Shown here: piece after piece, positions 3,963 to 61,283 of the stretch
How the letters are laid out: each line of letters opens with the position of its first letter
Position numbering within the stretch: position 1 is the stretch's first letter
Assembly: GCA_005239955.1 (NCBI GenBank)
Contig: SBAW01000011.1
Span: 6,924 to 70,923 of the forward strand
Direction: 5' to 3'
Origin: a bacterium
GTDB taxonomy: Bacteria; Patescibacteriota; Minisyncoccia; Phycocordibacterales; SBAW01
Length of the DNA stretch: 64,000 nt
Notes under the pieces: model-generated
Told to the model about the DNA's origin: nothing
Database searches by the model: none
What the model saw: only the letters and a program-made list of their open reading frames with translations
Translations under genes and position numbers: made by a program

Positions 3963-3990
3963 TTCTAGTGTTTTGCAAAACACTAGAATA
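3963..3990. promoter_or_regulatory. perfect 28-bp palindrome ATTCTAGTGTTTTGCAAAACACTAGAAT (putative operator)
   Basis: Exact inverted repeat about 100 bp upstream of the first gene of the GC-rich cassette. Confidence 0.5.
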
Positions 3991-4089
3991 AGGAGAGAAG
4001 CCGAAGTAATTTCGAAAATTCATGAGGGGCGTGTCGCTCCAGCCCATCTCGCGAGGGGGTCGCGAGCATCGAGCCATAAGGAGGGCACG

Positions 4090-4488
4090 ATGGACCAGTT
4101 TTTCGACCTACTCGGCAAAGTCGCTGACTTTGCCGGAGCCGTCGGCGGGATCATCTCCGCCGTCGGCGTACTGAAACTCCTGGCCCGGCAGGGCCAGGAA
4201 AAGCAGGACGTGCGCGTCCTGCTGACGATTCAGGGCGAGGGGAGGAGCGTCGAGCTCCCTCTCGTCTTGAAGCGGCGCGACGTGAGTCGCGCCGAGTTGC
4301 TTGGCCGCATCGGGATGCTCCCGATGCGGCAAAAGGGGGCGAGGTTTTCCCTTCGCGCCCTCTCAACCGCCGCCTTCATGGCGGCGGTCAACGAGGTCGT
4401 GGACGGGAAGTCCACCACGCTCGTCATTCCCGCCTCGCGAGAGGAGGTCGAGCAATTCGATCTTCCCGCGGGCGGGACGGCGGCCTAG
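4090..4488 (+). CDS. hypothetical protein (132 aa), N-terminal hydrophobic helix, GC-rich
   Basis: Strong RBS AAGGAGGG before the ATG. About 65% GC against roughly 50% in the flanks. No family recognised. Confidence 0.5.
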   Translation: MDQFFDLLGKVADFAGAVGGIISAVGVLKLLARQGQEKQDVRVLLTIQGEGRSVELPLVLKRRDVSRAELLGRIGMLPMRQKGARFSLRALSTAAFMAAVNEVVDGKSTTLVIPASREEVEQFDLPAGGTAA

Positions 4489-4737
4489 CGCATAGGGCCG
4501 CCGCGGAGATGTGGGGACTCCGTATTGATTCCTCACTTGGGCGACGCGCGCGTCGAGCGCGTTGTCCGTTGGAAGCTTCGGGGTCTCACGAAGGCCTCGT
4601 AGCTTCCCGAGAGTTTGCAGGTTCTCTCGCTGGTTAAAAACCTGCAACGGTTTGGGGTGAGCGTGGCTTGGTCGCTGCGCTCGCCTCCTTTTTCGAGAGC
4701 GTGGAATGGTTCGCGCACTCGAACAGAGGAGAGAGTA

Positions 4738-5130
4738 ATGATCAAAATAAAAATCCTCTCCGGACCTTACGCGGGGAAGGAGAGGGAGATAACTGAAGAG
4801 ATGGGGGTGGATCCGCACCCGCTCTTTATGGAGTTCGTGCGGTTCGGCTATCGCTGGCATGTGGACTACTCGCGCGCCAACGAGAGCGAGAAGTTCCAGT
4901 GGTGGCGAGAAGATCTCGCGGCACGCATCGTTCGCGCGCTGCGGGAAGGTCGCCCTGTATTCTTCCAAGACGTCGAATACCGCTCATCGTCCAGCAGGGA
5001 CGAGGTGTTCGAGGTCGCCGGCAAGATTGAGGATGCCATCGTCGGCAGCGGCTACTTCGTCACGGTCGGCTACGACGACGAGCGTGGCGTTCTCATCGCG
5101 ACCGGTCCGCGCGAGCACAAACTCCAATGA
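4738..5130 (+). CDS. hypothetical protein (130 aa), GC-rich cassette gene 2
   Basis: RBS AGAGGAGAGAG before the ATG. ORF MIKIKILSGPYAGKEREITEE…. No family recognised. Confidence 0.5.
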   Translation: MIKIKILSGPYAGKEREITEEMGVDPHPLFMEFVRFGYRWHVDYSRANESEKFQWWREDLAARIVRALREGRPVFFQDVEYRSSSSRDEVFEVAGKIEDAIVGSGYFVTVGYDDERGVLIATGPREHKLQ

Positions 5131-5208
5131 AAGGAGGAATAGTTTGTGCTCGCGCTTTCTATTCAGAACGCGAATGGTCGCGTCCTGATTGAAAGAAGGA
5201 GAAGAAAA

Positions 5209-5421
5209 ATGAGATCGAAATCCTCTCGCGTCGTCTTCGGCCTCGTGTTGATCGCCACAGGGGTCGCATATGCCGAATACGCGTGGCCCAAAATGGCCCA
5301 CCTCGGTTGGCTCCAGCCGACATGGATTATCCCGCCAGCCCTCATTCTGTGCGGGATCGCCCTCGGCATTTCCGCCTTCTGGAAACGCAGGGGCCCCAAA
5401 GACCCCGCCAATGATGTGTGA
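5209..5421 (+). CDS. small two-TM membrane protein (70 aa), GC-rich cassette gene 3
   Basis: RBS GAAGGAGAAG. Two hydrophobic segments (VVFGLVLIATGVAYA; IIPPALILCGIALGISAFW). Confidence 0.45.
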   Translation: MRSKSSRVVFGLVLIATGVAYAEYAWPKMAHLGWLQPTWIIPPALILCGIALGISAFWKRRGPKDPANDV

Positions 5422-5534
5422 AAGGAGTATATTCAGGACGAGCCGCAAACTGTGCGGCTCGTCCACCATATCGAGTTTTTATCCTGAGCGTAGTCGAAGG
5501 ATGAAGATTCGTCAGGGATTGCGAAAAAGAAAGT

Positions 5535-10651: not shown

Positions 10652-12409
10652 TTGATTCATATGCACATTGAGGAGAAGCAGTTGCGCGTATTCCTCATCG
10701 ACTCACGGCTCGTTTCTGGCAGTGATTTTGATTCGGCGAAGAAAGAGGCGGAAGAAAAAGGGCAGGGTGTCGGCAAGATCCTCGTTTCGCGAGGGTTTTT
10801 AAGCGATGATGATTTGCGCCGCGCGGAGGCCTATGTGCTCGGCATCCCCTTCGTCTCCCTCAAGAATGAGAAGATTCCGTTTGAGGTGCTCTCGCTCATT
10901 CCGGAACCGATCGCCCGCAATCACAACATCGTTGCCTTCAGAAAAAGCGACAGCGGCCTTGAAGTTGCGATGCTCGATACCGAGGACCTCGAGGCAATCG
11001 ACTTCGTTAAGAAAAAAACAAGGCTGAAAATCTTGCCGCGCCTTACCGACAATGAATCAATGAAGGCAGTACTCCTCCAGTATCAAAAAAGTCTCAAAGC
11101 AGAATTTGGGGAACTCATTGAAAAAGAAACGGCCTCGCTCAAAATGGTCACAGAGGCGGGGGCGGAGGGCGCCTCCGAAGCCGAACTTAAAAAGCTCGCC
11201 GAGGATCTCCCCGTTGTCCGTATTGTGGACGCACTGCTGCGCCACGCCATTATTCAAAGCGCTTCCGATATTCACATTGAACCGCAGGAGAAAGAACTCC
11301 TCGTGCGCTACCGCATCGACGGACTCCTTCACGACGCCGTGACCCTTCCCAAAGGTGCGGCGGACTCTTTGACTGCACGCATCAAAGTGCTCTCGAGCCT
11401 CAAACTCGACGAAAAACGCCTTCCCCAAGACGGCCGCTTTAAGGTTGAGTCGGGGGAACAAAAAGTATCGTTTCGCGTGTCAATTCTCCCGACCTACTAT
11501 GGCGAAAAAACCGTGATGCGCTTGCTGCGGGAGAGTGGCGGCGGCTTTACGCTTGAGGGATTGGGGTTTCATGGCGAAGGCTTAGAGCGCATCCACCAGG
11601 CGACGAAACAAACGACCGGCATGATCTTAACGACGGGTCCGACCGGCTCCGGTAAGTCAACAACGCTCTACACCATCCTCGATCTTCTCAATCAGCCTGA
11701 CGTCAATATCTCCACTATTGAAGACCCGATTGAGTACCAAATGCCACGCATCAACCAAACGCAGGTGCGACCTGACATCGGGTTTAGCTTCGCCAAAGGC
11801 ATTCGGACACTTGTGCGCCAAGACCCGGACATCATTATGGTTGGTGAAATTCGCGACGGAGAAACAGCAGGGCTCGCCATTAACGCAGCCCTTACGGGCC
11901 ATCTCGTTCTCTCTACCCTCCATACCAATTCCGCCGCAGGAGCCATTCCGCGCCTTATCGACATGGGCGCGGAGCCGTTCCTCATTGTCTCGACCATTAA
12001 AGTAATCATTGGCCAGCGCCTCGTACGAAAACTTGTCGGGAAAGAAAAATATTTTCTCACGAAGGCCGAGCTTATGAAGCTCGGAGAGACGGTTGAATTG
12101 CCGAAAGTTCTCGAAGCGCTCAAGTCGGAGAAAATTGTTGAGAAAAACGCGACCTGGGACAAGATTCCGTTTTATAAACCAAAGAAAACTCCCGACTCGG
12201 AAGATGGGTACGGCGGACGGATTGGTATTCACGAAATAATGAAAATGTCGCTCACGATCAAAGAGCTTGTGATGAAAAATGCGACCTCTGACGACATTGA
12301 AAAACAAGCACGCTCCGAAGGCATGCTTACTATGCTTGAGGATGGCATATATAAATGTGTGCAGGGCGTGACGACGATTGAAGAAGTGTTGCGAGTCGTA
12401 TCGGAATAA
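10652..12409 (+). CDS. pilB: type IV pilus assembly ATPase PilB/GspE family
   Basis: GSPII_E N-terminal domains, Walker A GPTGSGKSTT, Asp box, His box. Confidence 0.9.
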   Translation: MIHMHIEEKQLRVFLIDSRLVSGSDFDSAKKEAEEKGQGVGKILVSRGFLSDDDLRRAEAYVLGIPFVSLKNEKIPFEVLSLIPEPIARNHNIVAFRKSDSGLEVAMLDTEDLEAIDFVKKKTRLKILPRLTDNESMKAVLLQYQKSLKAEFGELIEKETASLKMVTEAGAEGASEAELKKLAEDLPVVRIVDALLRHAIIQSASDIHIEPQEKELLVRYRIDGLLHDAVTLPKGAADSLTARIKVLSSLKLDEKRLPQDGRFKVESGEQKVSFRVSILPTYYGEKTVMRLLRESGGGFTLEGLGFHGEGLERIHQATKQTTGMILTTGPTGSGKSTTLYTILDLLNQPDVNISTIEDPIEYQMPRINQTQVRPDIGFSFAKGIRTLVRQDPDIIMVGEIRDGETAGLAINAALTGHLVLSTLHTNSAAGAIPRLIDMGAEPFLIVSTIKVIIGQRLVRKLVGKEKYFLTKAELMKLGETVELPKVLEALKSEKIVEKNATWDKIPFYKPKKTPDSEDGYGGRIGIHEIMKMSLTIKELVMKNATSDDIEKQARSEGMLTMLEDGIYKCVQGVTTIEEVLRVVSE

Positions 12410-12411
12410 CT

Positions 12412-13629
12412 ATGCCGCTCTTCAAATACCGCGCGCTTCGGAAAGATGGCACCTCCTACCTCGGGGAAGCAACGGTTGCCGACCGCTTTGCGGTCTATAC
12501 GCACATTCGCCAAGAAGGAGCGACCGCCCTTTCGGTTGAAGAAGTACATTCTTCCCACTGGCTTTCCTGGCAAGGCCTCAACCGACTCCTTTCAACGGTT
12601 CGATTGCAAGACAAGATTGTCTTCACGCGAAATCTTGCGGCGATGATTGAATCAGGACTCGCACTTTCCCGGGCACTCTCGATTCTCGAACGTCAAACAG
12701 GGAATCCGAAACTGAAAAGTGTTCTCGCGGAAATTGGCGCTGACATACGAAAAGGCTCTACGCTTCATGACGCGCTCGCAAAATTCCCCCGTGTCTTTTC
12801 ATCGCTGTTTGTTTCTATGGTGAAGGCGGGCGAAGAGTCTGGGTCTCTTGCTAAATCACTCCATGTTGTTGCAACACAAATGGAGCGTGCGTACCAACTA
12901 TCGCGAAAAGTGCGCGGCGCCCTTATTTATCCTGCCATTATTGTTACCGCGATGGTTGTCATTGGGATCCTTATGATGATTTACGTCGTGCCCACACTCT
13001 CCTCAACCTTTAAAGAACTTGGCATGGAACTTCCCACGTCAACGACCGTCATCATCACGGTAAGCGATTTTTTGGTCGCGAACACCTTCGTCGCACTTCT
13101 GCTCCTTCTTATCGTTGCCGGCGGACTCGTCCTCGCTTCGCGCACTAACAGAGGGAAACGTGTTCTTGAATGGGTCATCCTCCATATCCCCATCATTGGT
13201 GGAATTGTGAAAGAGGTAAATGCGGCGCGCACGGCGCGCACCCTCTCTTCGCTCCTCTCGGCAGGGGTTGAGGTTGTCTCGGCACTCCTTATCACCGAAG
13301 AAGTGCTCCAGAACTCATATTATAAAGACGTGCTTAAAGCCGCGCGCGAACTGGTGCAAAAAGGTACGCCCATTTCGGATCAATTTCTCCAGCACACCGA
13401 CATCTACCCGCTTATGTTTGGCGAAATGGTGGCGGTGGGGGAGGAAACGGGAGAATTGACTGCCATGCTGACGAAGATTGCTGATTTCTATGAAGGAGAA
13501 GTTGAACAAAAAACGAAAGATATTTCAACGGTCATTGAGCCGTTCCTCATGATTGTCATTGGCGCGGGGGTCGGATTCTTTGCCTACGCCATGGTTGTGC
13601 CGATTTACTCCATAAGTAGTGGCATCTAG
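12412..13629 (+). CDS. pilC: type IV pilus platform protein PilC/GspF family
   Basis: Two GspF repeats and a polytopic membrane domain. Starts directly after pilB. Confidence 0.85.
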   Translation: MPLFKYRALRKDGTSYLGEATVADRFAVYTHIRQEGATALSVEEVHSSHWLSWQGLNRLLSTVRLQDKIVFTRNLAAMIESGLALSRALSILERQTGNPKLKSVLAEIGADIRKGSTLHDALAKFPRVFSSLFVSMVKAGEESGSLAKSLHVVATQMERAYQLSRKVRGALIYPAIIVTAMVVIGILMMIYVVPTLSSTFKELGMELPTSTTVIITVSDFLVANTFVALLLLLIVAGGLVLASRTNRGKRVLEWVILHIPIIGGIVKEVNAARTARTLSSLLSAGVEVVSALLITEEVLQNSYYKDVLKAARELVQKGTPISDQFLQHTDIYPLMFGEMVAVGEETGELTAMLTKIADFYEGEVEQKTKDISTVIEPFLMIVIGAGVGFFAYAMVVPIYSISSGI

Positions 13630-27142: not shown

Positions 27143-27412
27143 ATGTATCACTATACGTATGTGCTCTTGTCGAGGAAAGACGGCAAGTTCTATACGGGGT
27201 ATACCAAAGATTTGAAAGGACGATTTGAGGAACATCACCGTGGTGGAGTGAAGTCGACTAAAGATCGACGTCCACTCGAGCTTATATACTACGAGGCGTG
27301 TCGAGATCGCAACGACGCTCGACATCGCGAACAGTATTTGAAGACTCATCACGGCAAGATGTTCTTGCATAATCGTCTCAAATCGTATTTAACAGGGTCT
27401 AAGAGCTTCTAA
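27143..27412 (+). CDS. GIY-YIG nuclease superfamily protein
   Basis: YTYVLLSRKDGKFYTGYTKDLKGRFEEHHRGG…YYEAC…ARHREQYLK is the GIY-YIG core. The ORF could extend to 27074. Confidence 0.75.
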   Translation: MYHYTYVLLSRKDGKFYTGYTKDLKGRFEEHHRGGVKSTKDRRPLELIYYEACRDRNDARHREQYLKTHHGKMFLHNRLKSYLTGSKSF

Positions 27413-47060: not shown

Positions 47061-49829
47061 ATGGAAAAACGGGAGCGACTTCTCCCCACATCTCCTGAAG
47101 CGCGTGCGGAGCTTGAGGCTCTTCGCGCTGAAGTAAAACGGCGCGAAGAGGCGCTCCGTCTTGAGGGTGAACGGGAACCACGCTCTCAAGCAGTAAAAGA
47201 GACCGTTGCGGCTGTACGCGAACCTATCGCAAAGGATATCCCCGCGCCGGAGGGTATTGTGCTCAAACTCTCTCCGGAGGTACATGATACCCGCATGGGA
47301 GAACTTATCGGAGTGCTCCAGGAAAAGGGTATCAAAAAAGCATTCGAGGAAGTACTCTCAACCCGAAATCCGCATCTTATCGACGACTTCCATCGCGTCC
47401 TCGTAGAGTATCTCCACGAAGGGCACCCATCAGATATCGCGCCGCGAAGTAGGGCGGGCCGGGAACTCGCCATGGTCCTCTACGAAGTGTCGCTTCCTGA
47501 AGTTGCGAAGAAAGAAGAGCAGGAGAAAAAGCCCCTCAAAGAGCTCGTCTCCTCTATGGAGCAGTTTTATCAAGGCATGATTGCGGTTGGGGGAGGAGGG
47601 GGCTCGCACCACTTTTCCATTGAACTTGCGGTCCCCAACAGCGGCGAGCGCCTCTCCTTTTACGTCGCCGTTCCTCGGGAGAAAGTAGAGCTCTTTGAAA
47701 AGCAGATTGTATCCATTTTCCCGCACGCAAAAATTCGCGTCCATCAAGACGATTACAACATTTTCAATGAAGAGGGAAGTACGGTTGGCGCTGAAGCAAC
47801 GTACGGGAAGCGCATGATTTTTTCACTCAAAGGCTACGACGAGTTTGATTACGATCCCCTCAACGCCATTCTCTCCTCGTTTGCCAAACTCGCGAAGGTA
47901 GGTGAAGGGGCTGCCATACAACTCGTCGTAAGCCCGCGGCGCGGCGACTGGTATTTACGCAAATTCCAGCACGCGCTCCACCGCATCCATCGGGGAGTTA
48001 TCTTCCAGCGTGCAACCGATGTTCGGACCTCTTTCCTCGGGCAATTGTGGGTTGGTTTTAAGGATTTCTTCTTTAACGATAAACGCAAACGCCACAGCCA
48101 GTATGAGGAGGGCATGGATCAGGCTGATAAAAAGAAAGCGGAGAACATTGAGAAAAAAACCAGTAGCCCCATCGTTCTCGCAAACCTCCGCATTCTTGTC
48201 TCAACGTCCTCAGTTGGCCGCAGCCGCGCCGTCCTTGCCGATCTTGCCGCAAGCTTCAACCAATTTGAGGACACTTTTGGCAACAAGCTCTATTTCAACG
48301 AGTACTCGGGCGGGAGGCTGCGAAAACTTGCGCAAGATTTTATCTTTCGGCGGTTCACGAGGGGTTCTGCGCTTCCGCTTTCAACCAAAGAAGCGACGAC
48401 CATGATCCACTTCCCGCCGATTGGCATTGAAACTGCGCCTGAGCTCAAACAAGCAAAAGCGGGAGTCGCAGCAGCTCCTGTTGAGATTCCTCAAGAAGGG
48501 GTGCATCTTGGCGTCAATAAGTTTCGCGCAAAAGACACGCAAATTTATCTCACACCCCCCGATCGCCTGCGGCATTTTTATGTTATTGGTCAAACCGGTA
48601 CCGGCAAATCGACACTTCTTAAAAATATGGTTATTCAAGATATCGAGGCAGGGAAGGGGGTGTGCATGATTGATCCTCACGGCACCGATATTGTGGAAGT
48701 GCTCTCGCGCGTCCCCAAAGAGCGCTACGAGGATGTTATTTACTTTGATCCAGCGGCAACGGAGCGTCCCATGGGACTTAACATGCTCGAGTACGACACG
48801 CGCTTCCCTGACCTCAAGACGTTTGTGGTGAACGAAATGTTCGGCATCTTTAAGAAGCTCTACAAAGATGTGCCCGAGAGCATGGGTCCCCTCTTTGAGC
48901 AGTATTTCCGGAACGCTACGATGCTCGTCATTGAAGATCCCGAAACAGGCTCAACCCTTCTTGATATTTCTCGCGTCATGGCAGACGCGGATTTCCGTGC
49001 GCTGAAACTTTCCCGCTGCAAAAATCCCATTGTCATTCAGTTTTGGCGCGACATTGCTGAAAAAACGGGCGGCGAACACGCGCTTCAGAATATGGTGCCG
49101 TGGATCACCTCAAAGTTTGATGTGTTCCTCAGTAACGACATCATGCGCCCGATTGTGGTTCAAGAAAAATCAGCCTTCAACTTCCGCGAGATTATGGATG
49201 ACAAGAAAATCCTCTTAGTAAATCTTGCCAAAGGACGCCTCGGTGATATTAATGCCAACCTCCTTGGTCTCATTATTGTGGGGAAGATCCTTATGGCGGC
49301 GCTGTCGCGCGTTGATTCCTTTGGGAAAGAGTTGCCGCCGTTTTATCTCTACATCGACGAGTTCCAGAACTTTACGACTGATTCCATTGCTACCATTTTC
49401 TCTGAAGCCAGAAAGTACGGCCTCTCGCTTACCGTGGCGCATCAGTTTATCGCGCAGCTTGAGGAAAAAATTCGCGATGCGGTATTTGGGAACGTGGGGT
49501 CGCTCTGTTCCTTTCGTGTTGGTCCCGAGGATGCCGAGTTTCTGGAAAAACAATTCGGACCGACCTTTACAAAAAACGACATTATGAATCTTGATAACCA
49601 CAACGCATATGTACGTCTCCTGGTTCGCGGCAGACCCGAGAAACCATTTAACTTCGAAACACTTCCTTTCTCGGTGGGGAACCTCGCGACTGTTGACAGC
49701 CTCAAAGAGTTGTCGTATCTTAAATACGGCCGAAGTCGGAGCGAAATCGAAGCTGAAATCTCTGCTCGATACGAAGATCGATCAGTGCTTGATGAGCTCG
49801 ACGAGACACCTGCCATGGGCATTCAGTAA
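47061..49829 (+). CDS. TraD/VirD4/TraG-type coupling-protein-like AAA (DUF87/HerA-like) ATPase, 922 aa
   Basis: Walker A FYVIGQTGTGKSTLLKNMVIQDIEAGKGVCMIDPHGT (DUF87/TrwB pattern), Walker B …LYIDEFQNF…, …EARKYGLSLTVAHQFIAQL… (TraG-D_C-like). Long unique N-terminal half. Confidence 0.6.
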   Translation: MEKRERLLPTSPEARAELEALRAEVKRREEALRLEGEREPRSQAVKETVAAVREPIAKDIPAPEGIVLKLSPEVHDTRMGELIGVLQEKGIKKAFEEVLSTRNPHLIDDFHRVLVEYLHEGHPSDIAPRSRAGRELAMVLYEVSLPEVAKKEEQEKKPLKELVSSMEQFYQGMIAVGGGGGSHHFSIELAVPNSGERLSFYVAVPREKVELFEKQIVSIFPHAKIRVHQDDYNIFNEEGSTVGAEATYGKRMIFSLKGYDEFDYDPLNAILSSFAKLAKVGEGAAIQLVVSPRRGDWYLRKFQHALHRIHRGVIFQRATDVRTSFLGQLWVGFKDFFFNDKRKRHSQYEEGMDQADKKKAENIEKKTSSPIVLANLRILVSTSSVGRSRAVLADLAASFNQFEDTFGNKLYFNEYSGGRLRKLAQDFIFRRFTRGSALPLSTKEATTMIHFPPIGIETAPELKQAKAGVAAAPVEIPQEGVHLGVNKFRAKDTQIYLTPPDRLRHFYVIGQTGTGKSTLLKNMVIQDIEAGKGVCMIDPHGTDIVEVLSRVPKERYEDVIYFDPAATERPMGLNMLEYDTRFPDLKTFVVNEMFGIFKKLYKDVPESMGPLFEQYFRNATMLVIEDPETGSTLLDISRVMADADFRALKLSRCKNPIVIQFWRDIAEKTGGEHALQNMVPWITSKFDVFLSNDIMRPIVVQEKSAFNFREIMDDKKILLVNLAKGRLGDINANLLGLIIVGKILMAALSRVDSFGKELPPFYLYIDEFQNFTTDSIATIFSEARKYGLSLTVAHQFIAQLEEKIRDAVFGNVGSLCSFRVGPEDAEFLEKQFGPTFTKNDIMNLDNHNAYVRLLVRGRPEKPFNFETLPFSVGNLATVDSLKELSYLKYGRSRSEIEAEISARYEDRSVLDELDETPAMGIQ

Positions 49830-50000: not shown

Positions 50001-50594
50001 ATGCCCAAAATACATAATCCGAAAGAAGAAAAAACGTTTTTGATCATTAAGCCTGATGGCGTTCGTAAAGGACTCATTGGCGAAGTTATTAAACGACTTG
50101 AACAGCGCGACCTCAAAGTAGTCGCGCTTGAGATGTTTCATCCCAACCGCGCGGAGATGGACAATCACTATCCGAAAGACGAGAAATGGATTCGTCGCCT
50201 CGGAGAAAAGACCATGGCGACCTACGTGAAGTACGGTTATGACATTAAGAAAGATTTTGGTACGAGCGATCTTCTGCGTGTCGGGAAAACCGTTCGCGGG
50301 TGGCTTGTGGAGTTCATGATTTCGGCCCCGATGGTGAAGATGGTTGTCCAGGGCGTTCACGCAGTCGATATTGTGCGAAAAATTGTCGGTAAAACCATGC
50401 CATATGAAGCGGAAATGGGCACGATTCGTGGGGATTTCTCGGCCGATTCTCCGGCGCTCGCGAATACCGAGCGACGTGCCGTCTTTAACCTTGTTCATGC
50501 ATCAGAAACGCCGGAAGAGGCCAAGTACGAAATTAAACACTGGTTCCCCGGGCAGAAAATCTTTTCCTATAAACGCTTCGGGGTTGACGAATAA
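50001..50594 (+). CDS. ndk: nucleoside diphosphate kinase (with insertion)
   Basis: EKTFLIIKPDGVRKGLIGEVIKRLE…, active-site region …NLVHASET…. Confidence 0.85.
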   Translation: MPKIHNPKEEKTFLIIKPDGVRKGLIGEVIKRLEQRDLKVVALEMFHPNRAEMDNHYPKDEKWIRRLGEKTMATYVKYGYDIKKDFGTSDLLRVGKTVRGWLVEFMISAPMVKMVVQGVHAVDIVRKIVGKTMPYEAEMGTIRGDFSADSPALANTERRAVFNLVHASETPEEAKYEIKHWFPGQKIFSYKRFGVDE

Positions 50595-51042
50595 AAAGAT
50601 TCACTCTTGGGGCATGGGGTTTCAATGAAGCCAGGAAGCTTACCGTAGAAGCCTTTTCTCTCGGAGCCTATTGACGCGAGTGTCGCTTTTGTTTCTCATT
50701 TGCAAATAACGCTACTCAACTACGCACCTCTTGCTATACTTTTTGTAGGGTTACGTGGGGTTAAGTCTACTTTAACCCTTAGTCAGGGAGCTCTATATTT
50801 GGCAGTTGCTGACACTGGCGATTGCCGTGCGGGCACCCACCTGGTAATAATCGGGGACTAACTTCAGGTAACCCACCACAAGAACTTCTGGCTAGCGCCA
50901 GGAGTTTTTGTTTCTCCGGTCACTGATTTTGGCGTTTGATATTCTGCGGCGCCATCAATGTTCATGAGGGTCGAGTACTGCGTATAACTCCTTTATACAT
51001 CTGAACACGAACAGGCCATTTGCGCCGTTACGGCAAAATCCT

Positions 51043-51474
51043 GTGCACGGGATTTTTCTGATACACTCAATTCGCATGCTGCGAACACCGTACTTCAAAC
51101 TATTCTTTTCGGCTATGGTTCTCTGGGGCGTTCTCAATCAGTTTGCTATTGAACTGCATTGGTACTGGACATTCTGGTGGTTCGATATCCTCATGCATGC
51201 CATGGGTGGGTTTATTGTGGCACTCGGCGGCCTCATCTTTTTTATTTCCTCTCCTCTTGTTGACCGACTGCTCCTGCGCCGCTCGCCACTTTTTGCTGCG
51301 GTCATCGGTTCTGGAGGCATGGGGCTCCTGTGGGAAGCGTACGAAGCGATGGTCGGCATTATTGATCTTCCGGAATATCTCCCCGACAGTGTTTTTGATG
51401 TCAGCGCAGGACTTGCCGGTGGTCTTGTTGCCTATCTCCTCATTGTTCACCACCGTCGCGCCGTATCGCCATGA
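51043..51474 (+). CDS. hypothetical polytopic membrane protein
   Basis: 4 predicted TM helices. Overlaps the start of the next gene. Confidence 0.45.
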   Translation: MHGIFLIHSIRMLRTPYFKLFFSAMVLWGVLNQFAIELHWYWTFWWFDILMHAMGGFIVALGGLIFFISSPLVDRLLLRRSPLFAAVIGSGGMGLLWEAYEAMVGIIDLPEYLPDSVFDVSAGLAGGLVAYLLIVHHRRAVSP

Positions 51475-52817
51475 AACTTACTTTCGTAAGTGGCGCAGGA
51501 ACCGTTACGGGGGCTAATTTTCTTCTTGAAGATGGAGCGGAAAAGTACCTCGTTGATTGCGGACTACTGCAGGGGTGTGCGTACTGCGAACCGCATAACT
51601 ACGATCCCTTCCCCTATGATCCTGCATCCATTACCGCCCTCTTTGTCACCCATGCACATGTCGATCATATTGGCAGGATTCCCAAGCTCGTGCGGGATGG
51701 TTTCCGCGGTACCATTTACTCAACTGCGGCAACGCGCGACCTCGCCACGCTTATGCTTGCCGATACACTCGACATTCTCGGAATGGAGGCACGCCAGTCT
51801 CATCGCCCACCGCTCTTTCATCGGACGGATATTGATATGGCTCTCTCGCTCTGGAAAGAAATAGAATATGACAAGCTCATTGCACTTCATAACAATCTTT
51901 TGGCGACATTTCTCGACGCGGGACATATTCTCGGCTCCGCCATGGTCCGTATAGCGCGCGGGAAGCGCTCAATCCTTTTTTCTGGCGATATCGGGAACCA
52001 CCATGCGGCACTCCTCCCTGAAGCCGACGTTGTCTCTGATGCAACCTATCTGGTGATGGAAAGTGTGTATGGCAATCGCTCACACGACACGAGCGCTTCA
52101 CGAACCGAGCGGCTTTTGCGTGCAGTAAAGGGCGGGATTTCGCGCGGGGGCACCATTCTTATCCCTGCATTTTCTATGGAGCGTACCCAAGATATCCTCT
52201 TTGATCTCCGCACGCTCATTGAATCGAAAAATCTTCCGCCCATTCCGGTATACGTCGATTCACCGCTTGCAGCCGCCGTAACGGAAGTCTTCGAGCATCA
52301 TCGGACCCTGCTGCGACCCGACATTGCCTCCCGAAAAGGGCCTCTTTTTTCGTTTCCTGGCCTCACCATAGTAGGGGATAACGATAAATCGCACGCGATC
52401 CGTACACGCGGAAATCCCAAAATAATTCTCGCCGGGTCAGGGATGTCTCAGGGTGGGCGGGTGCTTTCTCATGAAGCAGCACTTCTGCCACACCAGGAGA
52501 ATTCACTCGTACTGGTTGGGTACCAGGCCGCCGGAAGTCTCGGGCGAACCCTTGAAGAGGGAGCAAAACGAGTCTCTATTTTGGGGAGGGATGTTCGGGT
52601 AAAAGCTCATGTCGAGCGTATTACCGGCTATTCCGGCCATCGCGATCAACACGGCCTCGTTGAATTTGTTGAACCTCTCACAAAAAGCCTTGAGCGGGTA
52701 TTTGTGGTCATGGGAGAGCCGGGAGCGTCACTCCATCTCGCGCAACGACTCCATGATTACCTCGGCATGAATGTCCATGTCCCCGAAAAAGGGGGAAGCG
52801 TTGATATCGATCTCTAG
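51471..52817 (+). CDS. MBL-fold beta-CASP family RNA-metabolising hydrolase
   Basis: HAHVDHIG zinc motif, beta-CASP motifs, …ITGYSGHRDQHGLVEFVE… C-terminal signature. Confidence 0.75.
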   Translation: MKLTFVSGAGTVTGANFLLEDGAEKYLVDCGLLQGCAYCEPHNYDPFPYDPASITALFVTHAHVDHIGRIPKLVRDGFRGTIYSTAATRDLATLMLADTLDILGMEARQSHRPPLFHRTDIDMALSLWKEIEYDKLIALHNNLLATFLDAGHILGSAMVRIARGKRSILFSGDIGNHHAALLPEADVVSDATYLVMESVYGNRSHDTSASRTERLLRAVKGGISRGGTILIPAFSMERTQDILFDLRTLIESKNLPPIPVYVDSPLAAAVTEVFEHHRTLLRPDIASRKGPLFSFPGLTIVGDNDKSHAIRTRGNPKIILAGSGMSQGGRVLSHEAALLPHQENSLVLVGYQAAGSLGRTLEEGAKRVSILGRDVRVKAHVERITGYSGHRDQHGLVEFVEPLTKSLERVFVVMGEPGASLHLAQRLHDYLGMNVHVPEKGGSVDIDL

Positions 52818-52844
52818 TTTTGTGGTACGATTGTTGCCATTGGT

Positions 52845-53459
52845 ATGGCTGAAGGGAAAAGAGAACACCGAAAAATTAAACTGTGCGTTTCTGGTGCGGC
52901 GTCAACCGGCCACTGCGGCCTCAATGCGTATGAAAAAGGAAAGGAACTTGGGCGCGAAATTGTGCGCCAGGGCGGCATTCTCATTACCGGCGCCACGACC
53001 GGCTTCCCCCTGTGGTCCGCGATAGGCGCGAAGGAAGAGGGCGGCTTTAGCTTAGGTTTTTCACCGGCGGTTTCTGAGCGCGAGCATCTTGAAGTCTACA
53101 ATCTGCCACTCGATTACCTCGATGTGGTGGTCTATACCGGCTCGGGATTTGCCGGGCGTGACCTTCTCTTGGTGCGAAGCTCGGATGCCGTGCTGTTTGG
53201 CTGCGGCAGAATCGGGACACTCCATGAATTTTTGGTTTCCTACGTTGATAAAAAGCCGATCGGTATCCTTGAAGCGGAATGGGAGACTGACGAAGTTATC
53301 AAAACAATCGTGAAAAGCGGTCACTACGAAACGTCAAATATTATTTTTGATACCGACCCGAAAAAACTCGTCGAGCGTGTCACCGCGCTTGTGGAGGACA
53401 ATCGGAGGAAGGAGAAGCCGCTTGCGGCGCGACGCCTGCCCGGGCTTGTAGAAGCCTGA
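52845..53459 (+). CDS. LOG/TIGR00725-family (SLOG) Rossmann-fold protein
   Basis: …VSGAASTGHCG…GGILITGATTG…VVYTGSGFAGRD…LFGCGRIGTLHE… matches the PF03641-like pattern. Confidence 0.6.
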   Translation: MAEGKREHRKIKLCVSGAASTGHCGLNAYEKGKELGREIVRQGGILITGATTGFPLWSAIGAKEEGGFSLGFSPAVSEREHLEVYNLPLDYLDVVVYTGSGFAGRDLLLVRSSDAVLFGCGRIGTLHEFLVSYVDKKPIGILEAEWETDEVIKTIVKSGHYETSNIIFDTDPKKLVERVTALVEDNRRKEKPLAARRLPGLVEA

Positions 53460-53478
53460 CGCGGAGCTTAATGGACCA

Positions 53479-53521
53479 CAAACGCCGCCCTTCGACTATG
53501 CTCAGGGCGGCGTTTGTGTTT
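53479..53521. terminator. bidirectional terminator: 13-bp stem ACAAACGCCGCCC/GGGCGGCGTTTGT, then T-run
   Basis: Between the convergent LOG-like gene and rplT. Confidence 0.7.
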
Positions 53522-53526
53522 TTTGG

Positions 53527-53871
53527 TTAACGAACAGCCGCGAGAACTGCCTTAAAAGATGAGGGTGAGACTTCGGCGAGTTCTGAAAGCATCTTTCGAT
53601 TGAGCGCAATCTTATGCTTTTTTAGTGCGCCAATGAATTTGCTGTAGTTCATGCCTTCCGTTCGAAGGGCGGCATTGAGACGGATGTTCCACAGTGTACG
53701 AAAATCATTCTTTTTGACGCGTCGATGGGCGAACGCGTATTTACCCGCATGGACGATAGCCTCCTTTGCCGCGCGTTCTTTCTTTGAACGGGCAAAGCGA
53801 TAGCCTTTTACCTGTCGCAGAACATTGCGACGACGTTTTTGTGATGTGACTCCTCCTTTGACGCGTGCCAT
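53527..53871 (-). CDS. rplT: 50S ribosomal protein L20
   Basis: MARVKGGVTSQKRRRNVLRQVKGYRF…. Confidence 0.95.
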   Translation of the reverse strand: MARVKGGVTSQKRRRNVLRQVKGYRFARSKKERAAKEAIVHAGKYAFAHRRVKKNDFRTLWNIRLNAALRTEGMNYSKFIGALKKHKIALNRKMLSELAEVSPSSFKAVLAAVR

Positions 53872-53907
53872 AAAAGCTAGGTGTTAGGTAATAGGTAATG
53901 GGCAGAA

Positions 53908-54096
53908 CTAAAATTGACTAGGAAGAAAGCGGCGTTTCCGTTTGCCGGTCATGACAAGATGCACCGTCTTTTTCTTCCCCAGACGGTTGGTTTGTGAATC
54001 CTTGGCATTGAAATGGTTTTGGCCAGCCTTTCTGGCAATGATCTTGCCACGGCGGGTTACCTTGAGCCTTTTGGTGAATGATTTGTTTGTTTTCAT
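53908..54096 (-). CDS. rpmI: 50S ribosomal protein L35
   Basis: MKTNKSFTKRLKVTRRGKIIARKAGQNHFNAK…. Confidence 0.9.
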   Translation of the reverse strand: MKTNKSFTKRLKVTRRGKIIARKAGQNHFNAKDSQTNRLGKKKTVHLVMTGKRKRRFLPSQF

Positions 54097-54100
54097 GGCT

Positions 54101-54610
54101 TTATTTCGCCGCTTTCTCGATGATGGTCATGTAGCCCTTGAGGCTCTTCTCGGCGGGTGTGGCAATCTTATATGGCGCAGGGATTATTTTCAAGAACCGC
54201 TCCAATCGCTCCTTAAGAAAAGCCGGCTCCATGTATTTGTAGCGACCCCACAAGAAAAGGTCGATTTTTACCCGGTGACCTTCCCCAAGCCACTCTGACG
54301 CCCGTTTTGCTTTAAGCGCGAGATCATGTTCTCCCGTCCCGATCTTAATCTGGACGCTCTTGGTCTCAGTTACATGCGCTTTGGCTTTGGCCGCCTTTGC
54401 TTTTTTGTTCTCCGCATACTGATATTTCCCAAAATCCATGATTTTGGCGATCGGAGGAACCGCTGTTGGCGAGATTTCAATGAGATCGAGACCTGCGTCC
54501 TCCGCTTTTTGGAGCGCGTCGGAGAGGGATATCACACCGAAATTGGCGCCGTCAGCGCCAATAACCCGGAGTTCCCGTGCTCGTATTTGGTGATTTACTC
54601 GTACTCTATC
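54101..54610 (-). CDS. infC: translation initiation factor IF-3
   Basis: …IRARELRVIGADGANFGVISLSDALQKAEDAGLDLIEI… Start probably non-ATG (typical for infC); the ORF is open to 54679. Confidence 0.85.
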   Translation of the reverse strand, partial: DRVRVNHQIRARELRVIGADGANFGVISLSDALQKAEDAGLDLIEISPTAVPPIAKIMDFGKYQYAENKKAKAAKAKAHVTETKSVQIKIGTGEHDLALKAKRASEWLGEGHRVKIDLFLWGRYKYMEPAFLKERLERFLKIIPAPYKIATPAEKSLKGYMTIIEKAAK

Positions 54611-54831
54611 TGCCAACGCGCAAAAACTATAGCACCCCGCCCCACATTTTGCCAGCAAAATGTGGGGCGGGGTTGACACCGTTTCACTTTTTTATCTTTA
54701 TGTTATCCCCATTGTCGAGAGTATCTTTTTATGCGACGGTTGCCTATAGGGGACCGTTCCTCCCGGTCCCGGACGTGCGTTGAACTTTTTATAACGTGCA
54801 TTAGAGGAACCTCAAACAAAAGGGGCAAGTC

Positions 54832-55296
54832 ATGAGGCACATGCTTCGACTACTACTGCTTGTCGCCGTGGCGGTCTGCGCGTCGATGGGCCCGACCCCG
54901 GCCAATGCCCACAAGGAGTGGAACTGGATCGCCGAGGGCGACTGGCGTAACGAGGTGGAAAACAAAGGCTGCTGTACGCCGGACAACTGCCACGCTGGCG
55001 AGATTCTCGGTTGGCGGTGCGTTACCGAGAATGATGCCCGGGTCTGCTTCGTCACGATGCAGATGAAGGAAGGGCCGTTCGCGGGGAAGGATCCGGTCAG
55101 GATCCGCGTCGACGAAAGCGGCTTCCATAGGTATTCGGAAGACCGCGACCGGGTCTGCCACCTCGATCAGGCCATGGACGCGACCAAGTACTTCAGCCAC
55201 TATGGCACCTGCGTGTTCCGGATTCCGCGCATCGGCGAGAAACCGGATTCGCCACCGAATGGCCGCCCGATGCAAACCAAGTGGCACCACAACTAG
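54832..55296 (+). CDS. hypothetical secreted Cys-rich protein (154 aa), GC-rich islet
   Basis: Signal peptide MRHMLRLLLLVAVAVCASMGPTPANA, 8 Cys, about 62% GC. No family recognised. Confidence 0.45.
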   Translation: MRHMLRLLLLVAVAVCASMGPTPANAHKEWNWIAEGDWRNEVENKGCCTPDNCHAGEILGWRCVTENDARVCFVTMQMKEGPFAGKDPVRIRVDESGFHRYSEDRDRVCHLDQAMDATKYFSHYGTCVFRIPRIGEKPDSPPNGRPMQTKWHHN

Positions 55297-55406
55297 GCGT
55301 CAACGAGGAAGTGCCATGACCACTATTGGACACCGACCGGGCCCGCTCCGCGATCAACTTGATCGCATCGACAAAGGAGCGGGCCCGTATCGTTTTTTTA
55401 AATAAC

Positions 55407-55437
55407 AAAAGAACTCCGCGAGCGGAGTTCTTTTGTT
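55407..55437. terminator. bidirectional terminator AAAAGAACTCCGC-GA-GCGGAGTTCTTTT
   Basis: 9-bp stem flanked by A- and T-runs. Confidence 0.65.
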
Positions 55438-55439
55438 TC

Positions 55440-55461
55440 TGGTGGAGATGGGCGGAATCGA
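55440..55461 (-). repeat. 22-nt exact direct copy of the tmRNA 3' end (TCGATTCCGCCCATCTCCACCA on the minus strand)
   Basis: Identical to 55616-55637. Lies 154 bp downstream (minus sense) of the genuine tmRNA terminus. Confidence 0.7.
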
Positions 55462-55615
55462 CATACCAAGTCGCTAATTCACTCCGCTCATAAGCGCTTG
55501 CCGGCCCGCCTCGCGGTCGCGGTGCGACCTCGCTGCGGCCGTTCGATTCCAACGAATGCGTCGCATTCTCCCATCGACAAATGAAAAAGCCCCCAGAAGG
55601 GAGCTTTTTCATTTG

Positions 55616-56010
55616 TGGTGGAGATGGGCGGAATCGAACCGCCGTTCAATGATGATTACCAGTGCGATCTTCAGTGTATAGATTGTCTTATATCTTTCAG
55701 CCTATCCTGTGAGAGACAATCAGAACCAGGATAGGCTAAAGTCCTTAGTCTCGACGCCGTGCGCGGACAACACGGTTCGCAGCCTCATGATATTACGCCC
55801 AGTCAAAGCTATGAGGCGTTGCCTTGATAGACGTCACTTAGGCCGTAGCGTAAGCGAAAGCAAAGCTGTTCCCCGAGAAATACGGAGAAACAAGTGATTT
55901 TGCCCGTGAAACTAGATTGTTTGCACGTGTGGTTTCCGGATTTTTACGAAGTTCCGGACTTCGACACTGCACGCAGGAGGTGCACGTCATTGTCTAGGCC
56001 GATCATCCCC
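55616..56010 (-). ncRNA. ssrA: tmRNA (SsrA), about 395 nt
   Basis: Minus strand: 5' GGGGAUG pairs with 3' CAUCUCC-A-CCA (G3·U70). Canonical T-arm GGCGG-UUCGAUU-CCGCC, encoded CCA. In-frame tag-like segment …GGG AAC AGC UUU GCU UUC GCU UAC GCU ACG GCC UAA (G N S F A F A Y A T A *) at about 55838-55873. smpB lies 120 bp away. Terminator hairpin AGCUCCC-UUCU-GGGGGCU + U-run follows the 3' end. Confidence 0.7.
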
Positions 56011-56132
56011 CGAGCGGGATCGACGATCAATGCTATTGATGATTCTCGCGATTCTTGTTCTGTCAGAAATGATCAGTTGTTCAGAATAATCGGAGAGTGA
56101 ATCCCACTCGGCGAACGGCCGGCCTAGATAAT

Positions 56133-56579
56133 TTAGTATTTCGTTTTCAACGAACGCTCCATAGATCGCTTTTCTTCCCGCGCCGCAATAGTCTGACGTT
56201 TGTCGTGCTTTTTCTTTCCTCGCACAACCGCGATCTGGAGTTTCAACTTGTGCCCCTTATTATACACCGAAACAGGGATAATTGTCAATCCCTTTTGGTG
56301 CTCATAGCCCCCCAGCTCCCCAATCTCCTTTTTGGTAAGGAGGAGGCGCCTGGGACGCGCCTCATCATAACTCTGCGGAGTGTTTTTCGGCTGATAGGGG
56401 GGAATGGCCATTCCCACAACAAACACCTCACCGCCGCGCACGAGTACCCGGCCACCTTCAAGTTTTCCATGCTTGTCTCGGAGTGCTTTCACCTCAAAGC
56501 CAAAAAGCTCTACACCGGCATCGTACTCGGCGAGAAATTCGTAGTTAAGGCGCGCTTTCTTGTTTTCTATCAGGCTCAT
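56133..56579 (-). CDS. smpB: SsrA-binding protein SmpB
   Basis: …NKKARLNYEFLAEYDAGVELFGFEVKALR…RPRRLLLTKKEI…GKKKHDKRQ… canonical SmpB. Confidence 0.9.
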   Translation of the reverse strand: MSLIENKKARLNYEFLAEYDAGVELFGFEVKALRDKHGKLEGGRVLVRGGEVFVVGMAIPPYQPKNTPQSYDEARPRRLLLTKKEIGELGGYEHQKGLTIIPVSVYNKGHKLKLQIAVVRGKKKHDKRQTIAAREEKRSMERSLKTKY

Positions 56580-56744
56580 CCGGTAGTGAAATTTCTGCTT
56601 AGTAAATTAACGGCACTTCTGTGTACACGGAGTACCGGCGTACCTCTCAAAAATCGAGCTCAATCACTTACTGCACTTCGTGCGAGCCGAAATTCTACTA
56701 CCGGACTCACGCGCTGAATATAGCACGGCTTTTAAGACGGATGA

Positions 56745-60502: not shown

Positions 60503-61186
60503 ATGGCACGGATCGAAGACAGAAACAAAGCTATCGCTCTTCGGCTGAAGGGGATGAGTTATTCCCAGATAAAGGAAAAGCTCGCTGCAAGTAAAAGCAC
60601 ACTGCATTACTGGCTTCGTGAGTATCCCTTACCGGAAGAGAGAATCAGACAGCTGAGAGATTGGAATGCGCAGCGGATAGAGCGTTTTCGTCAGACTATG
60701 GCTGAGAAACGAGAGTTGCGACAGTTAAATGTTCTAAAAGCAGTTGGGAGAAAAATTGGAGCTATTTCCCATCGCGAACTATTCATCGCAGGACTCTTCT
60801 TATATTGGGCTGAAGGAAGCAAGACTTCGCGCTATTCGATTTCGCTTACGAACACCGATCCTGCGATGCTCCGTTTTTTCATTCAATGGCTGAAAGCCCT
60901 TGGTGTCGACATTACGAGACTTCACGGGCGGCTTCATCTTTACACTGACATGGATGTCCGTAAACAAACTTTATTCTGGGCAAAACAACTCAATCTTCCC
61001 ATTTCAGCTTTTCGAAACCCATACATCAAACGGAGTGACTCAACTAAACGTCGCAATTACAAAGGACGTTTTGGCCAAGGAACCTGCTGTCTTCGTTTTT
61101 ATAGTCGAGACTTGGATGACCTCGTCTCTATGGGGGTAAAGGAACTACAGATGCGTTATTCCCTCAATACATTGAATATCAATTAA
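60503..61186 (+). CDS. HTH + degenerate LAGLIDADG homing-endonuclease-like protein
   Basis: N-terminal resolvase/Hin-type HTH (KAIALRLKGMSYSQIKEKLAASKSTLHYWL). …FIAGLFLYWAEGSKTSRYSISLTNTDPAMLRFFIQWLKALGV… parallels LAGLIDGDGS…SLT…L…L..G in I-CreI-type enzymes. Confidence 0.5.
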   Translation: MARIEDRNKAIALRLKGMSYSQIKEKLAASKSTLHYWLREYPLPEERIRQLRDWNAQRIERFRQTMAEKRELRQLNVLKAVGRKIGAISHRELFIAGLFLYWAEGSKTSRYSISLTNTDPAMLRFFIQWLKALGVDITRLHGRLHLYTDMDVRKQTLFWAKQLNLPISAFRNPYIKRSDSTKRRNYKGRFGQGTCCLRFYSRDLDDLVSMGVKELQMRYSLNTLNIN

Positions 61187-61206
61187 AGGGCGGGTAAAGT
61201 GTGAGT

Positions 61207-61279
61207 GCGCCCATAGCTCAATGGTAGAGCATCCGACTTATACTCGGACGGTTTGCAGGTTCGAGTCCTGCTGGGCGCA
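61207..61279 (+). tRNA. tRNA-Ile (anticodon UAU, decodes AUA)
   Basis: Cloverleaf: acceptor GCGCCCA/UGGGCGC, D-arm GCUC/GAGC, anticodon arm UCCGA-CUUAUAC-UCGGA, T-arm GCAGG-UUCGAGU-CCUGC, discriminator A. CCA not encoded. Confidence 0.8.
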
Positions 61280-61283
61280 CCCC

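Follow-up and report, generated by a model that had tools for sequence, protein, structure and literature searches.

Tyrosine integrases insert genomic islands and prophages into tRNA or transfer-messenger RNA (tmRNA) genes, together t(m)RNA genes, with the T-loop as a sublocation (Islander database, PMC4383910), and some Bacillota have a group I intron in the T-loop of their tmRNA (PMC13011429, and PMC99078 cited there). Here we analysed the tmRNA gene, ssrA, in a 64,000-nt stretch of contig SBAW01000011.1 (hereafter the window), whose source organism is placed by its SmpB relatives in Paceibacteria/Parcubacteria, within the candidate phyla radiation (CPR, Patescibacteria). At this locus the last 22 nt of ssrA recur downstream of the gene, and the gap holds a folded cassette without an open reading frame (ORF). 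We consider it probable, at about 55%, that the second 22-mer is a displaced former ssrA 3' end, and that the cassette belongs to a family specific to t(m)RNA 3' ends that spread by nuclease-driven homing. CPR genomes are tiny and thought to be poor in mobile DNA; in them ssrA appears as a layered landing pad that hosts ORF-less structured units, GIY-YIG cassettes and serine-recombinase islands.

The units resemble tyrosine-integrase islands in the apparent splitting of the T-loop, the restoration of the 3' end by incoming DNA, the displaced 3' fragment at the far border and the serial, gene-adjacent stacking. They differ in that the window unit measures 176 bp rather than kilobases and lacks an integrase and cargo, and in that it has its own terminator, an inverted copy of the target and a covarying, conserved interior. 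With GIY-YIG homing cassettes and the tmRNA group I intron they share a target, a conserved RNA gene at or near the T-loop, and with homing endonucleases a small GIY-YIG gene in some members and the occurrence of ORF-less beside ORF-bearing copies. Unlike the intron-bearing genes, the window tmRNA is uninterrupted, complete and colinear to CCA, after which a terminator (T1) follows, and Intron_gpI gave no match at the gathering threshold, at E <= 10 over 55380-55660, or in seven related loci. Classic homing does not duplicate the target, whereas unit loci duplicate the target 3' end. In topology the unit resembles an integrative element of t(m)RNA genes, in its company a homing cassette, and in its sequence a structured RNA.

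Other known elements also offered partial parallels. Like cis-mobilizable elements (CIMEs) and elements of the miniature inverted-repeat transposable element (MITE) kind, the units are bounded by target repeats, carry no enzyme of their own and sometimes stand in tandem; unlike them, they are confined to t(m)RNA 3' ends, have ends copied from each target and show an RNA-like fold. With repetitive extragenic palindromic sequences and bacterial interspersed mosaic elements (REP/BIME), enterobacterial repetitive intergenic consensus (ERIC) sequences and Rickettsia palindromic elements they share a small, structured, non-coding form, a position after genes or terminators, and arms that alternate in orientation along arrays, but they are site-specific, their arms are target-derived and the window has a single copy in its 64 kb. 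We know of no transposase of the REP-associated tyrosine transposase (RAYT) type for the units. The presence, at one border, of the target site in two opposite orientations about 40-60 nt apart recalls the folded single-stranded phage-type attachment site (attP) of CTX-phi and of integrative mobile elements exploiting Xer (IMEX); here, however, the target is the T-loop and not dif, the element is about 176 nt long, and there is no sign of a single-stranded stage or of Xer.

To define the locus, ARAGORN and an Rfam covariance-model search were applied, and both called a tmRNA in 55600-56020. An earlier reading made from the letters of the window without database searches (the sequence-only reading) had proposed a minus-strand tmRNA of about 395 nt at 56010-55616 with a tag frame running to UAA, a tRNA-Ala-like acceptor, a terminator of its own and smpB about 120 bp upstream, and each of these points was borne out. 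RF00023 matched over its full length (model positions 1-374) with 107 bits (gathering score 47; E 7.9e-41), and the ARAGORN tag, ANNLVSRAKSLVSPYFSGNSFAFAYATA, ended at UAA with an Ala-rich hydrophobic C-terminus similar to the tags of relatives. Direct reading of the sequence gave the acceptor GGGGAUG / CAUCUCC-A-CCA with G3.U70 and a perfect T-arm, GGCGG-UUCGAUU-CCGCC. The smpB gene ends 122 nt upstream of ssrA, and the terminator scan recovered T1.

The duplicated 3' end described by the same reading, with its 154-bp spacing and a following terminator (T2), proved exact. The 22-mer TCGATTCCGCCCATCTCCACCA occurs twice on the minus strand without mismatch (22/22) across a spacer of 154 nt, and no third copy was found in the window with up to 3 mismatches allowed (0 expected from 100 shuffles). 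Its identity begins inside the T-loop UUCGAUU, at the second T-loop base, and extends to CCA. The Logan assembly of SRR6943130 (contig 34078, 18,980 bp) was 100% identical over window positions 50133-56694 in an assembly-level comparison and contained both 22-mers, so the repeat is not an artefact of one assembler. The right-hand copy was also considered as a second tRNA-like gene and rejected, as it has no 5' strand of a T-stem and received no ARAGORN or Rfam call.

Between the direct copies lies a feature that the sequence-only reading had missed, an inverted copy of the ssrA 3' segment. T1 forms the centre of a long palindrome built from the tmRNA 3' end and this inverted copy, and in the minimum-energy fold of 55395-55660 the tmRNA 3' end pairs with the inverted copy across T1 (z = -7.4). 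The inverted copy is partly eroded: it is split in two by a hairpin, P2 (GAATGCG-AC-GCATTC, 55554-55568), the acceptor complement GGAGA is missing, and its local alignment, which scored 25 at +66 where the highest null score was 24, is marginal when taken alone. T2 has an A-tract before it and a T-tract after it and is bidirectional in form, with a 2-nt loop that falls outside the rules of the terminator scanner; it would be the original ssrA terminator. The 154-nt spacer contains no real ORF, and a 139-aa ORF annotated as a gene in the Logan assembly (55193..55612, minus strand), which overlaps both the unit and a neighbouring Cys-rich gene, is probably spurious. A search of Rfam 15 over 55380-55660 at E <= 10, and over the window and seven related loci at the gathering threshold, gave only chance-level terminator-like matches for the spacer; a weak tmRNA_permuted match there was rejected as simply a T-arm plus a terminator.

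To see how such a unit could have entered the gene, we compared three close relatives that carry different units (here Ua and Ub, with terminators Ta and T). Their arrangements read tmRNA-T-Ub in L104, tmRNA-Ta-Ua in L015 and tmRNA-Ta-Ua-CGATCCCCCCCATCTCCAC-T-Ub in L097. L097, from its internal copy onward, aligns colinearly with L104 across the tmRNA 3' end, the terminator and Ub; Ua was therefore inserted into the T-loop, next to the gene and ahead of the older unit. With it came a new 3' end from about C56, the terminator Ta, an inverted copy and a core. As this comparison of sequences shows, T-loop insertion keeps the tmRNA intact and pushes the old 3' end and the old terminator downstream. 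Applied to the window, the incoming cassette would be 55462-55637, comprising the 3' end, T1, the inverted copy and the core, with a length of 176 bp (the 154-nt spacer plus one 22-mer), and 55440-55461 together with T2 would be the old 3' end and terminator.

To place the window unit in a wider setting, we searched the window and 157 loci fetched with SmpB (1.6 Mb) with an nhmmer profile and then with a covariance model, R1, at E < 0.1. The searches found 29 units. They define a family of ORF-less units of 110-180 nt directly 3' of tmRNA, tRNA-Ser(GCU) and tRNA-Ile(UAU) genes in Paceibacteria, of which we found no earlier description in Rfam or in the literature searched. The units share one layout: the 3' end of the gene, T1, an inverted copy running from the T-loop to the 3' end, a core of some 70-120 nt, a direct 3'-end copy from the T-loop, and a second terminator. 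Often a small hairpin interrupts the inverted copy exactly where acceptor and T-stem meet. All units lie on the same strand as, and directly 3' of, one of the three genes or another unit, except two units of L004 that follow a serine-recombinase island. The window has one R1 match in its 64 kb (55450-55552, minus strand; 68 bits, E 1.6e-14, full model), which holds by construction because the window is one of the 15 seed sequences of R1; a separate nhmmer profile, likewise seeded with the window, gave E 3.3e-18. Homology to units from elsewhere is visible in two alignments, A2 and A3. A unit was carried by 18 of the 58 tmRNA loci with enough downstream sequence, counted without de-duplication, and the closest SmpB relatives, L021 and L001, had none. 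Tandem arrays of mixed subtypes occurred in L019, L006, L097 and L099, and right-hand copies had decayed to differing extents, in the manner of relics. Hammerhead-like strings, CUGAUGAG in L027 and UGAGUCC..GGACGAAAG in L006, L013 and L116, were considered and rejected: their cores are non-canonical, and no Rfam hammerhead reached the gathering threshold in L006, L013 or L027 (L116 lay outside that scan).

The ends of the units match the gene behind which they stand. Behind tRNA-Ser(GCU) in L006 the core is homologous, and both the inverted copy, GAGACGGAGGGATTCGAA, and the direct copy, CCTCCGTCTCCGC, match tRNA-Ser and not tmRNA. Behind tRNA-Ile(UAU) in L008 and L013 the copies match tRNA-Ile, the direct copy of L008, CGAGCCCCTCCACACGCA, doing so from C56; at the same gene in L039, 4 nt of the inverted copy are left and the direct copy is absent. 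Across 16 units, the core-proximal 11 nt of the inverted copy matched their own host at 10.4 of 11 positions and other hosts at 7.0 of 11 (0 of 20000 permutations as good). In L097 the T-stem is GCGGG/CCCGC, and the inverted arm, GGCGGGAATTGAA, follows this compensatory change of its host.

We assessed the fold of the core in an alignment of 15 sequences (A2), against shuffled and slid controls. From a plain MAFFT alignment, RNAalifold recovered helix P3a alone, and the structure (P3a, P3b, P4 and a capped mini-hairpin) was therefore written by hand. Standard-paired cells reached 86.6% compared with 69.1% in shuffles (0 of 500 as high) and 26-47% after sliding of the partners, 12 of 17 pairs had changed on both sides (0 of 500 shuffles as high), and the covariation score was 0.469 compared with 0.165 in shuffles, figures that are supportive and not proof, as the structure was derived from the same, related sequences on which the pairs were counted. 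A G.U pair was kept in 11 sequences of A2. The tmRNA-sense strand folded better in 18 of 24 units; for the window unit the sense fold gave -62 kcal/mol (z = -3.0) and the antisense fold z = -2.0. Two loop types are found repeatedly among the units, GA-GC-GNA-GC-GA and a 3x2 G/A internal loop, and they may represent kink-turn (K-turn)-like or GNA-triloop motifs. Units of type B (the window, L019, L098 and L099) have a near-invariant block of about 60 nt in common, and the tmRNAs of L019, L098 and L099 are 67-70% identical to that of the window. T1 is near-identical in L099, a different host, and by a crude identity measure (matches over the shorter length, with free end gaps) the unit with T1 was conserved as well as or better than the tmRNA (0.80 compared with 0.70 between the window and L099).

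In the mechanism that we favour, the cassette would supply a replacement 3' end, from about T-loop position 55/56 to CCA, together with its own T1, the inverted copy and a multi-helix core. The family may have spread by nuclease-triggered gene conversion, that is, by homing, in which the duplicated 3' end would act as a portable homology arm on the right-hand side; the copy in the window would then be a non-autonomous, ORF-less member that was mobilised in trans or is now fixed. The inverted copy and the conserved core may act as a single-stranded RNA or DNA structure. Homing is favoured because, in cassettes of the same topology that do have an ORF, the product is an 88-aa GIY-YIG nuclease; no other protein was found inside cassettes with this layout. 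The window unit lacks a GIY-YIG ORF; such an ORF stands inside the cassette in L030/L133, L293 and L283: in L030 it is flanked by 18-nt repeats of the ssrA 3' end; in L293 it lies between ssrA 3' repeats, followed by a degenerate displaced 3' end, TCCCGTAATCTCCAC, and a terminator; and in L283 it runs into the junction AACTCGTGAC/CGATTCAC (reading AACTCGTGAC/CGAT), which is the right end of type-A units. The window cassette has the layout of the GIY-YIG cassettes, starting at the gene's 3' region and followed by a displaced 3' end and a terminator. The cassette proteins are bare nuclease domains with no recognisable DNA-binding domain; they have 278 homologues of about 88 aa in Patescibacteria, and five of the seven homologues with sampled context lie directly 3' of smpB-ssrA. 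As a separate observation, a small GIY-YIG gene was present between smpB and ssrA in seven related loci.

Several points weigh against this interpretation. Homing by itself explains neither the inverted copy nor the strong conservation of the core, for which a functional RNA fits at least as well. The link to GIY-YIG rests on the shared topology, on one shared right end (L283) and on similar GA-capped hairpins, and R1 found no unit core in the GIY-YIG cassettes L284-L292. The GIY-YIG gene of the window itself lies before rpsL, and its product is about 40% identical to the L030 cassette nuclease and belongs to neither ssrA-cassette subfamily. The right-hand copies of L098 and L099 are not of their host's own T-stem type, and the pair statistics of the core carry the dependence stated above. 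Insertion in the window is argued from other lineages and not from this locus, whose nearest SmpB relative is 66% identical among GTDB representatives and 63% among metagenome contigs; an empty-site junction, with the tmRNA 3' end joined straight to T2, would read ...CTCCACCA/GAAACAAAAG, and the collections contained no empty-site or same-genus relative for this comparison, the sole exact match being the Logan contig of the same sample.

A broader proposal, which we put forward tentatively as possible rather than probable, is that viroid-sized (110-180 nt) RNA-like cassettes that home into the T-loop of CPR tmRNA and tRNA genes form a new class, equipped with a replacement 3' end, a terminator, a target-complementary arm for guiding or hairpin attachment and a K-turn-like core, and moved in trans by a bare 88-aa GIY-YIG nuclease or through a single-stranded hairpin intermediate. 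If this class is real, it would represent a new mode of existence, in which a minimal selfish element stays safely within an RNA gene that is essential to a minimal genome. Should the units be mobile, they would be among the smallest site-specific elements known, the spare 3' end and terminator would solve the problem of insertion into an essential RNA gene, and the target-matched inverted arm would hint at recognition by base pairing or by a hairpin, with possible use as a targeting tool.

The same units can also be read as resident functional RNAs, a somewhat unlikely alternative in which a vertically inherited, immobile structured non-coding RNA, either a 3' trailer or a small RNA in its own right, is transcribed together with the tmRNA or tRNA or directly after it, and its inverted arm pairs with the 3' end of the gene or with its own 3' copy and serves in processing, stability or termination control. 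Covarying helices and the conserved G.U pair, the better folding of the sense strand, sequence blocks better conserved than the tmRNA, an arm that tracks the compensatory T-stem changes of its host (as in L097) and the long hairpin that the tmRNA 3' end, T1 and the inverted arm form together all agree with such a role, and the units would then constitute a new structured RNA family tied to tmRNA and tRNA 3' ends. Immobility is harder to reconcile with presence or absence that differs among close relatives with breakpoints in the T-loop, with the patchy distribution over tmRNA loci, with different subtypes inside tandem arrays, with the same core behind three different genes bearing target-specific ends, and with right-hand copies that decay like relics; moreover, the unit sits after a strong terminator with no space for a promoter of its own. 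A functional RNA is compatible with mobility, and both readings can hold together. Unlikely as well is a non-autonomous integrative mini-element, attP-only or CIME-like, that a site-specific recombinase acting in trans inserts by a crossover in the T-loop; in a more exotic version the direct copy, T1 and the inverted copy would form a single-stranded hairpin attP, as in CTX-phi/Xer integration. A direct repeat from the T-loop to the 3' end is the classic sublocation of integrases at t(m)RNA genes (general rule, PMC4383910), new units enter next to the gene and ahead of older ones, and the order direct copy, T1, inverted copy, core, direct copy and T2 is the one that we would expect from strand exchange between a hairpin attP and a duplex bacterial attachment site (attB). 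In this clade ssrA is moreover a real hot spot for recombinases, as L004 and L097 carry islands with large serine recombinases, encoded on the opposite strand with 3' ends that overlap a copy of the ssrA 3' end; in L004 the tmRNA is separated from its old units by about 8 kb of unknown genes, and in L097 the 3' copy used by the island was the distal, displaced one. The two islands have homologous left ends, but their junction is a different one (after ..CTCCAC) and their ends showed no similarity to the units. No recombinase gene was found within any unit or among the window ORFs tested, GIY-YIG being the only protein in cassettes of this topology, and covarying hairpins are unlike the arm sites of integrases. 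Nor was a unit found in the phage and plasmid collections searched: BLAST returned only 30-nt terminator-like matches or nothing, and two viral pattern scans for a phage-borne attP gave 120 chance matches to a loose type-A pattern, 0 of them confirmed by nhmmer, and 0 matches to type B. Among 10 loci, no recurrent protein gene was found downstream of the units except the serine recombinase of L097.

The sequence-only reading had taken the repeat as the attL/attR footprint of an integrase-mediated island, decayed or abortive in its integration and possibly a mini-element, with the Cys-rich gene as cargo. Such a remnant, whether of an island with a deleted interior or of an abortive event, is now very improbable and already largely refuted. 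The direct repeat of the ssrA 3' end, the G+C-rich neighbouring gene and the islands at ssrA in relatives all speak for it. However, no integrase or recombinase domain was found in the tested ORFs within about 12 kb on either side of ssrA or in the other window ORFs tested, the tested ssrA-flanking ORFs being housekeeping genes (secY, adk, map, ndk, RNase J, infC-rpmI-rplT, patatin, GtrA, ftsH and recG), and no cargo lies between the repeats. The spacer is not random debris but a conserved, structured, ORF-less unit that recurs in many genomes of Paceibacteria, also behind tRNAs, and it resembles neither end of the serine-recombinase islands at ssrA in relatives. The proposed insertion topology stands, and the mini-element that the same reading had offered as an alternative is favoured by the data, whereas the integrase-island origin is not; island finders that equate repeats of t(m)RNA 3' ends with integrase footprints will miscall such loci. 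Least probable of all is a local replication error, in which the 3' end was duplicated in situ, through a fold-back or a template switch at the hairpin of the terminator, and no element was involved. Template switching extends quasi-palindromes, and the palindrome centred on T1 would fit such an event. A homologous core of 80-100 nt that over 25 loci have in common, across different hosts and target genes, is left unexplained, and because of this shared core the error is refuted as a complete explanation; template switching may nevertheless account for the inverted arm staying matched to its gene. Nuclease-driven homing of a structured cassette remains the reading that we prefer.

The features of the window locus, together with the recombinase genes of two relatives, are listed in Table 1.

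Table 1. Coordinates of features at the ssrA locus and of related genes (window positions unless a locus is named)
Feature	Position	Strand	Description	Basis
ssrA (tmRNA)	55616..56010	-	395 nt, one-piece, CCA encoded	ARAGORN; Rfam RF00023
smpB	56133..56579	-	gene of the protein partner of tmRNA	Pfam SmpB 5.6e-44, 142/143 profile positions
Left 22-mer copy	55616..55637	-	working tmRNA 3' end; cassette-supplied under the insertion model	
Terminator T1	55578..55615	-	CAAATGAAAAAGCTCCC-TTCT-GGGGGCTTTTTCATTTG	terminator scan
Inverted copy of ssrA 3' segment	55541..55575	-	pieces GATGGG (55570-55575) and GGAATCGAAC (55541-55550)	
Conserved structured core	55462..55544	-	helices P3 and P4, type B, ...CGAGGCGGGCCGGCAAGCGCTTATGAGCGGAGTGAATTAGCGACTTGGTATG	covariance model R1
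Right 22-mer copy	55440..55461	-	displaced original ssrA 3' end under the insertion model	
Terminator T2	55400..55439	-	GAAACAAAAGAACTCCGC-TC-GCGGAGTTCTTTTGTTATTT	sequence reading; 15-bp hairpin in the 55395-55660 fold
Cys-rich protein gene	54832..55296	+	154 aa, convergent with ssrA; outside the repeats	
Free-standing GIY-YIG nuclease gene	27143-27412	+	89 aa; intergenic, just upstream of rpsL (27443)	Pfam 6.9e-16
Large serine recombinase, L004	11216-12850	-	544 aa	Resolvase + Recombinase + Zn_ribbon_recom
Large serine recombinase, L097	3498-5159	-	553 aa	Resolvase + Recombinase + Zn_ribbon_recom

We next considered the Cys-rich gene beside the repeats. As the sequence-only reading had noted, it is G+C-rich (0.615 compared with 0.515 for the window). 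Its product has 8 Cys and a signal-peptide-like N-terminus; the proposed role of the gene as cargo did not hold. The protein had no Pfam match, and a word-index search returned only the protein itself; an exhaustive search gave one real homologue, P0002, at 42% identity. The gene for P0002, in a different lineage, occupies the same position, with infC on the minus strand followed by the Cys-rich gene on the plus strand, and has a G+C content of 0.61-0.65 between flanks of about 0.50. Because the window gene lies outside the repeats, and its synteny with infC and its high G+C content are kept in a homologue only 42% identical, the sequences support a conserved infC neighbour, and not cargo, with high G+C content as a family trait. 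Beside the P0002 gene stands a GIY-YIG cassette with a unit-type end. The only other G+C-rich patch of the window, 3946-5469 (about 0.58-0.61 compared with 0.515), contains ORFs of 160-200 aa that overlap one another, have no Pfam match and are not similar to the Cys-rich protein.

Some further arrangements were observed around units and tmRNA genes in the related loci. In L029, two near-identical units (10914-11070 and 12909-13063), each with part of T1, flank an opposite-strand gene for a 525-aa tetratricopeptide-repeat (TPR) protein, a layout that resembles a composite unit-gene-unit structure. In L006, ARAGORN reported a permuted 'tmRNA*' at 10845-11271, across the real tmRNA 3' end and two units, which is a false call because of the repeated 3' ends. 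Other repeated hairpin modules follow the tmRNA in L022 (10958-11110), L013 (12372-12450) and L034 (10853-11020); the module of L022, AAAATTAAGGAGCGAAGCGACTATAATTTT plus GTCGCC-GTAGCTTTGCGTA-GGCGAC, occurs twice. Capped mini-hairpins of the GAGCGAAGCGA type appear to be widely used as a building block in the intergenic DNA of these genomes.

Other observations concern the surroundings of ssrA in the window. A perfect sigma-70 consensus (TTGACA, 18 nt, TATAAT; 12/12) lies within the smpB coding sequence at 56259-56288 on the minus strand, about 250 nt upstream of the tmRNA 5' end, and a weaker promoter-like site at 56039-56066 immediately precedes the tmRNA. Between map and ndk, 6 kb from ssrA, a 922-aa ATPase (47061-49829, plus strand) gave weak matches to T4SS-DNA_transf, TraG-D_C, TrwB and HerA; it is coupling-protein-like, with no other conjugation genes around it. 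A tRNA-Ile(UAU) gene, conserved in the clade, lies at 61206-61282 on the plus strand, a few kb from smpB-ssrA in the window and in many relatives (L004, L006, L008, L013, L015, L024, L039 and L110 among them); in the window the recG ORF abuts its 3' end and leaves no space for a unit. Ending 20 nt before this tRNA, a 227-aa ORF (60503-61186, plus strand) shows MerR/HTH_23 motifs and a weak match to LAGLIDADG_3 and may be another homing-endonuclease-like gene beside a tRNA gene.

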